Positions 13,529 through 60,224 of a stretch of 64,000 bases of DNA are shown here, one piece after another. Location: NCBI GenBank assembly GCA_027048495.1, contig JALTWS010000011.1, positions 173-64,172 of the forward strand, written 5' to 3'. This stretch comes from Candidatus Azambacteria bacterium (lineage in GTDB: Bacteria; Patescibacteriota; Minisyncoccia; GWC2-36-17; M10-OD1-4). A program made the translations under genes and the position numbers. Within the stretch, counting starts at the first letter, position 1. Each line of letters begins with the position of its first letter. Under the pieces are notes generated by a model, which was not told where the DNA came from, made no database searches, and saw nothing but the letters and a program-made list of their open reading frames with translations.

Positions 13529-13568
13529 TTTATGCCAAAATTTAAAAGCTTTTAAATTTTGGCATAAA
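13529..13568. repeat. 40-nt perfect palindrome directly after the glmS stop
   Basis: TTTATGCCAAAATTTAAAAGC|GCTTTTAAATTTTGGCATAAA, centre AGCT, no mismatches. Confidence 0.8.
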
Positions 13569-13644
13569 GCATGGCGACTTTTCTTTGAAAAGTTTGGACT
13601 GGCTATGTTTTTGATGATATAATTAAATAATAAGTTTTATTTTT

Positions 13645-14316
13645 ATGGAAAATGAAGTTGTGCTGACAACAAAAGATGGAGTAAAGCTTTACGGAAGCTA
13701 TTTTCAAACAGGCAATCCAAAAGACCCAGCTGTTGTTTTGTTGCACATGATGCCAGCCGATAGAAAGTCTTGGTATGAATTTCAAAAAAAGCTAAAAGAT
13801 GCTGGATTTCAATCACTGGCTATAGATTTAAGAGGGCATGGCAAATCTTTACAAAAAAATGATCAAGAGATAGATTATAAAAGTTTTACAGACAAAGAAC
13901 AACAAGAAAAAATATTTGATGTTGAAGCTTCTGTTGATTTTTTTGAAAGCAAAGGTATTTTAAAGCAAGACATTTCTCTTGTTGGGGCGTCAATTGGAGC
14001 AAATCTAGCTTTGTGGTATCAGTCAGAAAACCCAGAAATTAAAGCTTCTGTTTTACTTTCCCCCGGGCTTGACTATAGGGGAGTAACAACAGAAGATAAA
14101 ATAAAAAAACTTTCAGACGATCAGTTTGTCTTATTTGCTTCTGGTGGAGATAAAGACAGCTATTCAAGAGAAACGGTAAAAAAACTTTTTGAAATTAAAG
14201 AAGCAAAAAAAGATCTGCAGATATTTGAAGATGCAGAACATGGGACAAACATTTTTAAATCTCATCCGGAGTTTGAGGAATACATAATAAATAAACTAAA
14301 AGAAATTTATAAATAA
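13645..14316 (+). CDS. Alpha/beta hydrolase (dienelactone-hydrolase/BAAT-like)
   Basis: LLHMMPADRKSW...LRGHGKS and nucleophile elbow GASIGAN, C-terminal His; 223 aa. Confidence 0.55.
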   Translation: MENEVVLTTKDGVKLYGSYFQTGNPKDPAVVLLHMMPADRKSWYEFQKKLKDAGFQSLAIDLRGHGKSLQKNDQEIDYKSFTDKEQQEKIFDVEASVDFFESKGILKQDISLVGASIGANLALWYQSENPEIKASVLLSPGLDYRGVTTEDKIKKLSDDQFVLFASGGDKDSYSRETVKKLFEIKEAKKDLQIFEDAEHGTNIFKSHPEFEEYIINKLKEIYK

Positions 14317-15152
14317 TGCTTTTTGGCGCGCATGTATCAATAGCAGGAGGAATAGAAAATTCTCCCAAAAGGGCAAGCGAACTTGGCTGTGAAGTATTTC
14401 AAATATTTTCAAGATCTCCCCAATCTTTTTCTGCTCCGGAAATTTCAGACAAAACCGCAGAGCTTTTTTTGGAAAATATGCAAAAATATAAGCAAAAAGA
14501 AGCTTATATACACACTCCTTATATAATAAATTTAGCGTCCACAAACAACAGGATAAGATACGGTTCAATAAAAGTAATACAAGAAGAGCTGAAAAGAGCA
14601 TCTAAGTTAAAAGTTAAATATGTAATGACACATCTTGGCTCTTACAAGGATGTTGATACCGAGCTTGAAGGGCCTCTGATGGTGGTAGATGCTTTAAAAA
14701 AGGTGCTTGATGGTGATTTTTCAGCTCAGCTTTTGCTTGAAATATCCGCCGGAGCAGGCAATATTGTGGGGTGTAGGTTTGAAGAGTTGGCTTACTTTTT
14801 AGAGGAGCTTTCAGGATACAGTGTTGGGGTATGCTTGGATACTGCGCATATGTTTGCTTCTGGATATGATATAAGAACAAAAGAAAGTTTCAAAAAGGTA
14901 TTTGACGAGTTTGATAAAATTGTAGGTATTAAACATTTAAAGCTTTTTCATTTAAACGATTCAAAAGTTGAACTGGGAGCAAAAAAAGACAGACATGAGC
15001 ACATAGGAGACGGATACATAGGCAAAGAAGCGTTTTTGAGTTTGGTGCAAGATGAGAGATTAAAAAACATAAATGGAATACTTGAAACTCAGCATGATAA
15101 AGTGAAAAAAGACATAAGCATAATGAAAGGTTTCAGGGATTTACAAAAATAA
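14316..15152 (+). CDS. nfo: Endonuclease IV (AP endonuclease family 2)
   Basis: MLFGAHVSIAGG, DTAHMFASGYDI, HLNDSK...DRHEHIGDGYIG metal-binding motifs. Confidence 0.9.
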   Translation: MLFGAHVSIAGGIENSPKRASELGCEVFQIFSRSPQSFSAPEISDKTAELFLENMQKYKQKEAYIHTPYIINLASTNNRIRYGSIKVIQEELKRASKLKVKYVMTHLGSYKDVDTELEGPLMVVDALKKVLDGDFSAQLLLEISAGAGNIVGCRFEELAYFLEELSGYSVGVCLDTAHMFASGYDIRTKESFKKVFDEFDKIVGIKHLKLFHLNDSKVELGAKKDRHEHIGDGYIGKEAFLSLVQDERLKNINGILETQHDKVKKDISIMKGFRDLQK

Positions 15153-15215
15153 ATATTGACTTTTTGTTGTTTTAAATGTTAAATAAAAGGGTTGATCTTT
15201 TCAATGGAGGACAAA

Positions 15216-15383
15216 ATGAGTTCAAAAAAATGTGTGAAGTGCGGGAAGCCACTAAGCTCCTATAACAAAACAAACCAATGCTTTCACCACAAAAGGGAAA
15301 AAAGGGAAGAGAAGGATATAAAAGACAAAAGGAATTGGTATATGACATCCATCAGAATGAAGGATGGCAAAGATATATTTTAA
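15216..15383 (+). CDS. Small basic Zn-ribbon protein, hypothetical
   Basis: CVKCGKP...NQCFHH; GGAGG Shine-Dalgarno 5 nt before ATG 15216 (chosen over ATG 15192). Confidence 0.35.
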   Translation: MSSKKCVKCGKPLSSYNKTNQCFHHKREKREEKDIKDKRNWYMTSIRMKDGKDIF

Positions 15384-15392
15384 GTCATTGAA

Positions 15393-15435
15393 GGTCCGCA
15401 AAAGCAGTTTGCTTGCGGGCCTTTGCATTTGTGGA
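15393..15435 (+). terminator. Hairpin terminator after the small Zn-ribbon gene
   Basis: GGTCCGCAAAAGC-agttt-GCTTGCGGGCC (12 bp, one G-U) followed by a T-rich tract. Confidence 0.55.
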
Positions 15436-15439
15436 TTTT

Positions 15440-58790: not shown

Positions 58791-58802
58791 TTTTTCGCAC
58801 AA

Positions 58803-59081
58803 ATGAAAAAGAAAATTTATATATTTTTATTTTCCATTTTAGGTGCTTTGGTTGGGTTTTTGGCAAAAGGCTTGGTTGAACTTAAAGCTATAGAGCTTTT
58901 GCTTTTTAACTTTGAAAAATATAGCTTTGGCATGAGTTTTGAAAATATAGTTATTTTGCACAATGCTTTTTCTTTTTTAGCTTTGTTTTTAGGTGCTTTG
59001 GTTGGATTCTTTCAAGGGAAATACTGGTGGAGGATTTTGTATGAGAAAAAAACAAAAGATAGGCAAAATATTACTTATTGA
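58803..59081 (+). CDS. Small membrane protein, hypothetical
   Basis: Two hydrophobic helices, 92 aa. Confidence 0.3.
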   Translation: MKKKIYIFLFSILGALVGFLAKGLVELKAIELLLFNFEKYSFGMSFENIVILHNAFSFLALFLGALVGFFQGKYWWRILYEKKTKDRQNITY

Positions 59082-59749
59082 CTGTTTTTTTCTATTGCTT
59101 GATCAAAAAGCTCCGGTTTTTCTGGATGGTGCGAATCCATTGTTTTGATAAATTCTTCTTTGCTTAGTTGAAGCCTTGGGTTGTTTTCTTTTTCATGTTT
59201 TATGGTGGAATATTCTCTATTTTTGTAGTCATGAGCAGGGTATACTTTAGTATCATCTGGAAGTATCATTAATTTTCCCCAAAGAGTATTGTGCAGGTCA
59301 ATGCTGTCTCCAAGTTGGAAATCTGTTCTGCCGGTTCCTTCTATTAGGAGCGCGTCTCCTGTAAATACTGCTCCGTTAACATACAAAGATATGCTTTCGT
59401 TTGTGTGTCCTGGAGTATGCATTATTTTAATTTTTGTGTTTCCAAGCTCAATAAAATAGTCATCATCAACTTCAATATCTTTTCTTTTTGACGGAGAGTT
59501 CTTGTGCATTACTATTTTTGCTTTTGTTTTTTCTTTCAATTCCTTTGAAGACGATATATGATCGGCGTGGGTGTGAGTTTCAAAAATATACTTTACTTTT
59601 AAGTTGTTGTCATTTATGTATTTTAAGTATTCATCTGTTGGCACTTCTTCTGATGGGTCTATTATTATAGCTTCTTTTGATTGTTCATCAAAAAGTATAT
59701 ATGAAAGACACCCTCTTTTTGATCTGAATTGTTTTATTGTATATGTCAT
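59075..59749 (-). CDS. MBL-fold metallo-hydrolase (glyoxalase II-like)
   Basis: HTHADH motif (ETHTHADHISS), HTPGHT, downstream His/Asp ligands. Confidence 0.8.
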   Translation of the reverse strand: MTYTIKQFRSKRGCLSYILFDEQSKEAIIIDPSEEVPTDEYLKYINDNNLKVKYIFETHTHADHISSSKELKEKTKAKIVMHKNSPSKRKDIEVDDDYFIELGNTKIKIMHTPGHTNESISLYVNGAVFTGDALLIEGTGRTDFQLGDSIDLHNTLWGKLMILPDDTKVYPAHDYKNREYSTIKHEKENNPRLQLSKEEFIKTMDSHHPEKPELFDQAIEKNSQ

Positions 59750-59818
59750 TTTTTTTAAAGTTAATTTTCCTCTATCTTATTGTATACTTTATTCTGTTTT
59801 TTTACAAACTCATTATTT

Positions 59819-59852
59819 GCTTGCCCAACTTGTGATTGCGGATTGGGCAAGC
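59819..59852. other. 10-bp perfect hairpin in a divergent intergenic region
   Basis: GCTTGCCCAA-cttgtgattgcgga-TTGGGCAAGC. Confidence 0.5.
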
Positions 59853-59927
59853 GAAATGGTATAGTGAATAATTGAATACATTTTTTAAAAAATGTCATAA
59901 TACTTAAATAACAGTAAAATTTAACAA

Positions 59928-60173
59928 ATGCTTAAGTATATATTTTTTATAGTCATACTGGCTTTTGTGTTTGTATTTTTTTATTTTAATTTCCAAAAAA
60001 AGCCGGAAATAATTGACTTTTTTGCTTGTAGTGATTATTGTCCAAAGCCAAAAGAGGATTATATAATAAAAATATACAAAGGAGTGTCTTCAAAAAAGGA
60101 ATGTGAAAAACTAAACGGCGAGTTTTATGAATTTTACGGATGGAAAAAATACCAGGTTTGCAAAGCAAAATAA
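59928..60173 (+). CDS. Small secreted Cys-containing protein, hypothetical
   Basis: N-terminal hydrophobic signal/anchor; 5 Cys; 81 aa. Confidence 0.35.
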   Translation: MLKYIFFIVILAFVFVFFYFNFQKKPEIIDFFACSDYCPKPKEDYIIKIYKGVSSKKECEKLNGEFYEFYGWKKYQVCKAK

Positions 60174-60186
60174 CCATTTATCTCCT

Positions 60187-60224
60187 TTACTTAACTTTCT
60201 CACGATCGTGAGAAAGTTAAGTAA
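60187..60224. repeat. 38-bp perfect palindrome, copy 3
   Basis: Identical to 46160-46197 and 54218-54255. Confidence 0.9.

Follow-up and report, generated by a model that had tools for sequence, protein, structure and literature searches.

In a 64,000-nucleotide stretch of DNA from a Candidatus Azambacteria bacterium (contig JALTWS010000011.1, positions 173 to 64,172; hereafter the window), a 38-bp perfect palindrome occurs in three identical copies between genes. We found that the core of this palindrome defines a sequence family restricted to the Candidate Phyla Radiation (CPR, or Patescibacteria), and that in other CPR lineages the same core brackets the gene for a small protein with a PaaX-like fold, which we call mini-PaaX. 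Based on these sequence comparisons, we lean toward the view, which we hold as probable rather than firm, that the 38-bp palindromes, a 50-bp palindrome with the same centre, and a diverged palindrome behind the tgt gene are copies of a mini-PaaX recognition site that would have multiplied locally as protein-bound, hairpin-capable gene-end elements.

The palindrome finding is real and beyond chance. An exact match search of the window placed TTACTTAACTTTCTCACGATCGTGAGAAAGTTAAGTAA at 46160-46197, 54218-54255, and 60187-60224, just as an earlier note on this DNA had reported; no further copy is present in the window at up to three mismatches, and none is expected (100 shuffles). The 50-bp palindrome at 46312-46361 is perfect, with 25-nt arms, and has the same centre as the 38-mer, ACGATCGT, as had been claimed. 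It holds the fourth occurrence of CACGATCGTG, a word found at 46174, 46332, 54232, and 60201 where 0.01 occurrences would be expected. The hexamer CGATCG also occurs four times in the 64 kb, each time as the centre of a palindrome. When the three 38-mers are aligned with 60 nt on each side, the flanks are unrelated right up to the palindrome edge; the repeated unit is therefore the palindrome alone. The same-species contigs L034 and L040-L044 are 99.7-100% identical to the window, and identical palindromes are carried by independent assemblies among them (99.7-99.8%), which rules out an assembly artefact; contigs this similar to the window are otherwise uninformative. The window has a G+C content of 32.7% and a gene content typical of Patescibacteria.

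All palindrome sites in the window are intergenic, and the three 38-mers lie 2, 47, and 13 nt past stop codons on the + strand, the first of these distances being valid only if a 45-amino-acid (aa) open reading frame (ORF) at 46020-46157 (+) is real. That ORF is repeat-rich, consisting mostly of 12-bp CCTAGGAATAAT tandem repeats (NPRN/NPRD). Copy 1 (outer motif ACTTAAC, spacer TTTCTC, centre ACGATCGT) follows its stop within the spacer between efp (-) and UDG (+), and the 50-bp palindrome is situated 114 nt beyond copy 1 and 92 nt ahead of the UDG ORF. The latter carries GTTAAA at -17 to -12, in the same register as GTTAAC in the sites of a Liptonbacteria locus (L035) and a Jorgensenbacteria locus (L037). 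Copy 2 lies 47 nt past the obg stop and ~190 nt upstream of a purC promoter-like site; 36 nt beyond it is a G+C-rich companion palindrome or tandem repeat at 54282-54318, GGACTTAGCGGTC-C-GACCGCTAAGTCC, a candidate family member. The dyad of copy 3 is perfect over 44 bp (60184-60227), 3 bp more per side than the 38-mer, and is followed by GGGGGTGTTTTTGTGTTT; in this longer form it lies 10 nt past an 81-aa ORF's stop, and its end is 27 nt upstream of the -35 hexamer of rplJ. Palindromes of the family are often paired, in the window at 46160 with 46312 and at 54218 with 54292.

Two further palindromes, behind glmS and tgt (both gene identities confirmed by Pfam), had been noted earlier as possible relatives of the 38-mer, and only the second proved to be one. 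The tgt palindrome (16654-16685, with halves cTTAACTAATTTGACGA and GCGTCAAATTAGTTAA) lies 8 nt past the tgt stop, and its arms, 15 nt each, enclose 2 nt that lack self-complementarity (GACG-AG-CGTC); its centre reads ACGAGCGT in place of ACGATCGT. About 15 of 17 positions per half agree with the mini-PaaX-flanking site of the Liptonbacteria locus L035 (halves GTTAACAAATTTGACGA and TCGTCAAATTTGTTAAC), the centre T being replaced by G. The glmS palindrome (13529-13568, centre AAAGCTTT, 4 nt past the glmS stop) is a perfect 40-bp dyad with no sequence similarity to the family of the 38-mer and ACGATCGT.

The family extends well beyond the window. Among 185,579 species-representative genomes the exact 38-mer has no match, while its inner 20-mer, TTTCTCACGATCGTGAGAAA, is found in 19 contigs from ~15 genomes, all of them Patescibacteria, with G+C contents of 31-56%; their metagenome-assembled genomes (MAGs) are labeled Parcubacteria, Paceibacteria, Jorgensenbacteria, and "Saccharibacteria". 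The inner 22-mer is found in 10 metagenome contigs. In 28 of ~30 instances the dyad runs 5-12 bp past the searched core, the outer arms being lineage-specific (for example ATCCACAC, TATACCA, ACAGCCTC, and TATAGCTTT) yet perfectly complementary, and at several copies it is lengthened 2-4 bp past the common unit by locus-specific bases. These sites, too, fall between genes: of 21 dispersed copies, at least 13 follow a stop codon by no more than 100 nt, and many are between convergent genes. Each representative MAG has 1-4 contigs with the exact 20-mer, a count that covers incomplete MAGs and exact cores only, and the 64-kb window has three copies of the palindrome; given these 1-4 contigs, the element does not appear to be a high-copy repeat. 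In a set of 114 ORFs that flank dispersed copies, the sole recurrent family outside housekeeping functions is PaaX_M, and no transposase, recombinase, integrase, or resolvase family recurs.

In a groundwater CPR species (CAYIKA/Hainich), each copy of the core lies 18-55 nt from a member of a second perfect-palindrome family, GTCCCCAACyTTGCTCGATCGAGCAArGTTGGGGAC (centre TTGCTCGATCGAGCAA), the intervening spacers being non-homologous. Such pairs are found at 1744-1889 of contig L006, 1844-1956 of L004, 11294-11416 of L010, 4244-4370 of L017, and 7663-7790 of L027. In one case a third palindrome family (centre CGCGATCGCG) stands alongside, and all three families are centred on CGATCG. A scan of viral contigs with a 16-mer gave four matches, a number estimated to be compatible with chance for a collection of that size. 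In two of them, L031 (6728-6771) and L033, both IMG/VR contigs with 21% G+C, a 44-bp perfect palindrome of the family with the same TTCTCACGATCGTGAGAA core lies 10 nt past a stop codon; the two contigs appear to be one locus in opposite orientations, and this DNA may be that of a CPR bacterium or a CPR phage. In L030 (11559-11639; 60% G+C), three CTCACGATCGTGAG palindromes spaced 31-36 nt apart precede a serine-recombinase-like gene, identified by reading its N-terminal translation, in a layout that resembles a res site.

Sites centred on ACGATCGT flank the mini-PaaX gene on both sides at 10 of 10 loci for which DNA was at hand (L014, L023, L021, L005/L007, L016, L035, L037, L038, L047, and L048), at L021 visibly on the downstream side only, as that contig ends upstream of the gene. 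The earlier note had offered selection as a protein-binding site as one of two explanations for the identical 38-mers, and this bracketing in other CPR lineages gives that reading the better support. In the Jorgensenbacteria locus L014, a 167-aa gene lies between two core palindromes whose outer arms differ from each other. Its ortholog in L023 is bracketed likewise, with an upstream 34-bp dyad identical to that of L014 despite G+C contents of 39% and 54% for the two loci. Homologs directly adjoin the palindrome in L021 and L005/L007; in L016 the homolog is 3 kb away and is itself also bracketed. Five loci (L035 from Liptonbacteria, L037, L038, L047, and L048) were retrieved through the protein alone, and in every one of them sites occur 23-100 nt upstream and 20-112 nt downstream of the gene. 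The presence of the centre octamer beside the gene in four of the protein-retrieved loci is far above chance (product of binomial p ~2e-14). For a paralog in L037, the bracketing sites are centred on ACGGCCGT rather than ACGATCGT. Across all nine loci in which the upstream region is present, the upstream site lies 23-100 nt from the start codon, a putative promoter position.

The geometry of these sites also informs how they might be recognized. GTTAAC-N24-GTTAAC is present in L035, L037, and L038, and dyads of 34-44 bp are present elsewhere, including the 38-mer of the window. In L038, L016, and L047, the outer motifs (GTTAAC, GACAA/TTGTC, and GTAAACAC) and the centre are symmetric, whereas the intervening spacers are non-complementary. 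Sites of this kind would fold poorly, which points to recognition of double-stranded DNA rather than of a hairpin. The position of the mini-PaaX gene varies between lineages. Its neighbors include a type IV pilus gene cluster in two of them (L047 and the locus of P0055), and in L047 two sites lie directly upstream of pilM (7260-7400); mini-PaaX may regulate pilus or competence genes.

Mini-PaaX is a protein of ~165 aa in which a winged helix is followed by a Cas2-like domain that matches PF20803, the PaaX central Cas2-like domain (E=6e-16); domain and fold comparisons were made on proteins of the related loci. When an AlphaFold model (mean predicted local distance difference test score, 81) was searched with Foldseek, the best match was E. 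coli PaaX (8a39; E=2.8e-4), and Rv0674 (3kfw) was among the best PDB matches, with VapD/Cas2 and PadR/LmrR ranking next. PDB matches found from the sequence, without the model, were marginal. Homology searches returned 75 homologs, of which those with a source name are from CPR lineages, and a profile search of 1.84 billion representatives yielded 454 clusters at 50% identity with E<=1e-30, the best 150 of which are all 125-230 aa in length. No match to PaaX_C, the C-terminal phenylacetyl-CoA effector domain, was found in these proteins of 125-230 aa, which end after the Cas2-like domain. In E. coli, PaaX binds TGATTC(N27)GAATCA (39 bp) and represses its own promoter, and its middle region has a Cas2-like fold described as a dimerisation motif (PMC9493321). 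A phage or plasmid origin of mini-PaaX was considered and rejected: there was no phage match, and matches to actinobacterial plasmid PaaX regulators were weak.

Conservation within the protein is uneven. Ten of its 12 invariant residues are in the Cas2-like half (FD[IV]PE, R113, R117, S131, and W133), where the invariant D104 corresponds to the Asp of Cas2 beta1, and the amino-terminal half, a winged helix-turn-helix (wHTH), is much more variable. The invariant Cas2-like domain may thus parallel the invariant DNA centre, and the variable wHTH the variable outer arms. The putative recognition helix reads (K/R)VTLS in three proteins with GTTAAC-type sites and YTTLS with TATACC-type sites; these few data points are modest evidence that the outer arms could be half-sites for the wHTH.

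To place the window copies in an evolutionary context, we turned to the closest relatives with conserved gene order, L045 and L046, whose Obg proteins are 71-72% identical to that of the window. L046 contains no palindrome with arms of 10 nt or more in 21 kb, and thus none in the corresponding spacers. Its efp-UDG spacer is 125 nt long, compared with 470 nt in the window, where the 45-aa ORF and two palindromes make up the ~345 extra nucleotides. L045 has two related dyads (centre GACGACCGTC; 52 and 36 bp, 9214-9358) in the murB-obg spacer, not in the spacers that hold the window copies. Since the 38-mers are absent from the same spacers in syntenic relatives, we conclude from this comparison that the window copies are lineage-specific additions, in agreement with the recent spread suggested in the earlier note. 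The murB-obg spacer of the window contains two A+T-only palindromes (52775-52809 and 52919-52956), and this spacer seems to collect palindromes in both the window and L045.

Taken together, these observations lead us to propose that a mini-PaaX dimer binds a 34- to 40-bp dyad composed of lineage-specific outer half-sites ~24-27 bp apart and a nearly invariant central ACGATCGT, which in size and arrangement corresponds to the E. coli PaaX operator TGATTC-N27-GAATCA. A site located 20-100 nt before the mini-PaaX start codon would permit autorepression as in PaaX, and a second site would lie 20-60 nt past the stop codon. In the lineage of the window, recent and exact copying would have brought the site to additional spacers between genes, immediately past stop codons, where the dispersed copies probably form a protein-bound gene-boundary element (a roadblock or insulator). 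Because the dyad is perfect, it could also form a 17- to 22-bp hairpin in the transcript. We infer the binding of these sites by mini-PaaX, the presence of a mini-PaaX gene in the source organism, and the role of the dispersed copies from the pattern of sites and genes described above.

Several observations weigh against this proposal. No mini-PaaX gene is found in the 64-kb window (tblastn and family hidden Markov model [HMM]), and the family HMM finds none in other palindrome-retrieved loci that have no adjacent gene. The three 38-mers are identical at 38 of 38 positions, spacers included, which a normal regulon would not maintain. Regulon sites would be expected at promoters, yet the nearest promoter-like hexamers are ~190 and 27 nt downstream of copies 2 and 3, respectively, and in other genomes several copies are situated between convergent genes. 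Moreover, binding alone leaves unexplained the perfect complementarity of the dispersed copies and the 2- to 4-bp locus-specific extension of the dyad. Finally, the 14-bp core also occurs three times upstream of the serine-recombinase-like gene in L030, an unrelated viral contig of high G+C content. We also considered that mini-PaaX and the perfect palindromes constitute either a self-propagating pair, similar to RAYT/REP (REP-associated tyrosine transposase and repetitive extragenic palindrome) but with a Cas2-fold protein in place of an HUH transposase, or a Patescibacteria-specific system for gene boundaries or termination that depends on the protein. Were the pair self-propagating, the protein would act on hairpin DNA, extruded or single-stranded, by recognizing its invariant ACGATCGT centre, and would place copies of the dyad at further gene ends. 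The perfect symmetry would then be accounted for, as would the dyad's locus-specific lengthening, the grouping of different palindrome families, and the presence of sites on both sides of the gene. We regard either version as rather unlikely.

The most probable of the alternatives, though still unlikely, is a selfish palindrome resembling REPs and bacterial interspersed mosaic elements (BIMEs), copied as a hairpin by a trans-acting enzyme (mini-PaaX in the role of the RAYT, or another transposase), the gene-end position reflecting tolerated insertions. Identical copies with unrelated flanks, their absence from the same spacers in syntenic relatives, and the BIME-like grouping of palindromes from two or three families at distances of 18-115 nt are all in keeping with such an element. 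So are the bracketing of the mini-PaaX gene, as RAYT genes are bracketed by REPs, the retention of the Cas2 beta1 Asp as D104, and the breakage of contigs of other assemblies at or near copies. However, the 114 flanking ORFs include no recurrent Y1/HUH, other transposase, or recombinase family, and in particular not the RAYT/IS200-like transposase that the earlier note had recommended seeking. The 1-4 exact-core contigs per representative genome seem few beside the tens to hundreds of copies of REPs, and no target-site duplication is seen, so that the label of REP- or MITE-like element (MITE, miniature inverted-repeat transposable element) did not hold up. REPs are species-specific, whereas the core is conserved across class-level lineages; the sites flanking the gene are quasi-palindromes that form hairpins poorly. 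The Cas2-like fold of PaaX makes up the middle part of that protein, described as a dimerisation motif (PMC9493321). A MITE was rejected on the further grounds that the unit is a palindrome with no internal sequence, and that its flanks (AAAG/AT, AAAG/AG, and TCC/AGG) are not direct repeats. A MITE or composite element made of paired palindromes was rejected as well, given their non-homologous spacers of 18-55 nt.

It appears quite unlikely that the palindromes are factor-independent bidirectional terminators, or hairpins stabilizing mRNA 3' ends, whose sequence similarity is incidental or due to gene conversion. Such a role would suit the position of at least 13 of 21 dispersed copies shortly after stop codons, many between convergent genes, and the great stability of the hairpins. 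As RNA, the window palindromes would fold into 17- to 22-bp hairpins of -23 to -37 kcal/mol (z -6 to -9); that of copy 1 has -23.7 kcal/mol (z -9.2) and that of copy 3 has -37.4 kcal/mol. A/T runs are present at the stem base in L006, L012, and copy 3 of the window, and the window copies pass a lax terminator scan in this A+T-rich genome, but their stems are A+U-rich. Copy 3 is the only window copy with a clear T-run, most copies across genomes have none adjacent, and canonical G+C-rich terminators with T-runs occur in the same window at 30311, 53134, and 55374. Unlike these classic terminators, long palindromes in these genomes are mostly perfect through the centre. An RNA hairpin needs no self-complementary loop, yet the palindromes are perfect through the invariant ACGATCGT, and the sites upstream of mini-PaaX are in promoter regions and often unable to fold. 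The suggestion in the earlier note that these are not ordinary terminators therefore appears to stand. An Rfam scan of the window brought only two tRNAs to the gathering score, and no curated RNA family at the palindromes.

We consider it very unlikely that these are recombination sites of the lox/dif/res type, in which 13- to 15-bp recombinase arms would surround an 8-bp crossover, ACGATCGT, and the mini-PaaX gene would be a cassette between two of them. The layout of 13+8+13 (34 bp) to 15+8+15 (38 bp) does resemble lox or FRT sites, the centres are identical among sites, as strand exchange would require, and the position of the mini-PaaX gene differs between lineages. In L030, moreover, the three CTCACGATCGTGAG palindromes lie 120-200 nt upstream of the serine-recombinase-like gene. 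On the other hand, none of the CPR copies has a recurrent integrase or resolvase family nearby, directionality cannot come from a symmetric centre, and in L014 the pair of sites around a single gene has unlike outer arms. Sites for restriction-modification or methylation (CGATCG or GATC), or DNA-uptake sequences arranged as inverted pairs, are more improbable still. Every CGATCG of the window lies in a palindrome, the strong avoidance of TCGA and ACGT points to restriction pressure, and CPR bacteria carry competence genes, with DprA and ComEC occurring in mini-PaaX loci. But only ~1-5 CGATCG would be expected in 64 kb, which amounts to no real depletion elsewhere and is too few to judge restriction avoidance of this hexamer; conservation reaches 10-20 bp on each side, far past a restriction-modification site; and an uptake sequence would be present in far more copies. 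Other identities were tried and rejected. The LexA/SOS box of Patescibacteria is described as a direct repeat, and the sequences of parS, the lac operator, and other operators considered do not match. A CIRCE element (controlling inverted repeat of chaperone expression) occurs separately at 20472 and is unrelated to the palindrome family, and an origin of replication at the window repeats was dismissed because the GC skew is uniformly positive.

Some further features of the window are recorded here. Contigs of other same-species assemblies, L034 and L040, end at window positions 54247 and 46274 (inside copy 2 or between the efp-UDG palindromes), and two same-species contigs terminate within the repeat at 46080 in the 45-aa ORF; exact palindrome repeats appear to fragment CPR assemblies. 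A repeat similar to CCTAGGAATAAT, CCCTAGGGATAA, lies at 38111-38141. Arrays of an 11-bp GGAAAT repeat stand on both sides of a 249-aa gene (24771-25520) that has a weak C-terminal helix-turn-helix match (DeoR/HTH_11). Upstream of this gene is an inverted repeat with 25-nt arms (24648-24708), and directly past its stop is a 125-bp quasi-palindrome (within 25529-25675) of ~7+7 inverted 11-bp units with a perfect 59-bp core (25562-25620). Further 11-bp units at 26409-26451 are followed by ~1.1 kb of A+T-rich, ORF-free DNA. This is a second instance in which presumed sites flank the DNA-binding gene to which they belong, or else a module of the iteron type; no replication origin is indicated at this repeat region by GC skew. 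The CIRCE-like inverted repeat, TTAGCACTC-N9-GAGTGCTAA (20472-20502), overlaps the start of the ClpB gene (20494-23169), which suggests that clpB may be controlled by HrcA. Among tetranucleotides in the window, TCGA occurs 5 times (expected 22 by a Markov model and 185 by base composition), ACGT 15 times (44 and 185), and CGCG 14 times (29 and 42), and this avoidance suggests restriction pressure. At 30308-37571, one run of + strand genes includes three Wzy_C (O-antigen-ligase-like) paralogs, which are ~700-770 aa long and have TPR repeats.

Patescibacteria account for a sizeable part of bacterial diversity and for the most part have no cultured members, and their gene regulation is almost unstudied; our literature search returned nothing relevant on the motif, on PaaX with Cas2, on PaaX in CPR or Parcubacteria, or on palindromes or terminators in CPR. 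Here, an unstudied, widespread protein family (at least 454 clusters at 50% identity, ~160-200 aa) is paired with a motif conserved across lineages, namely a central ACGATCGT with lineage-specific outer half-sites, which lets sites be predicted in any CPR genome. This pairing of protein and motif makes the regulator and its set of sites directly testable. Given the unusual two-sided bracketing, the perfect symmetry, and the lineage-specific spread to gene ends, one may ask if the role of a PaaX/Cas2-fold protein goes beyond the repression of transcription. A practical consequence is that exact repeats coincide with contig breaks in CPR assemblies.

Among known systems, PaaX of E. coli and Pseudomonas shares with mini-PaaX the winged helix and Cas2-like fold, a long dyad (36-39 bp) with widely spaced half-sites, and a site just upstream of the regulator's own gene that fits autorepression. 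The CPR protein, however, at half the size of PaaX, is without the C-terminal phenylacetyl-CoA-binding domain, and so has no known effector. Its putative site has the invariant ACGATCGT as an additional central element and in many cases is perfectly palindromic, the gene is always followed by a second site, further copies of identical sequence stand at gene 3' ends rather than promoters, and no paa pathway is present in these genomes. Like the CPR sites, REP/BIME elements are short palindromes that lie outside genes and close to their ends, do not vary within one genome, cluster with palindromes of other types, and bracket a single-copy gene, that of the RAYT. REPs are imperfect palindromes that have a 5' head of the GTAG type, number in the tens to hundreds per genome, and are associated with an HUH Y1 transposase, whereas the CPR sites are perfect, apparently low-copy, centred on CGATCG, and without a conserved single-stranded head, and the gene that they bracket encodes a PaaX-like DNA-binding protein. 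The uptake-sequence terminators of Neisseria and Pasteurellaceae resemble them in placing a specific word as an inverted pair behind genes, so that identical hairpins recur, but those genomes have more than 1000 uptake-sequence copies, recognized by an extracellular pilin, while the CPR sites are few and their associated protein is cytoplasmic and DNA-binding. The cyanobacterial highly iterated palindrome HIP1 (GCGATCGC) is also a palindromic word centred on CGATCG; it is an 8-mer iterated thousands of times, including within genes, whereas CGATCG occurs four times in the 64 kb of the window and only within intergenic dyads of 38-50 bp.

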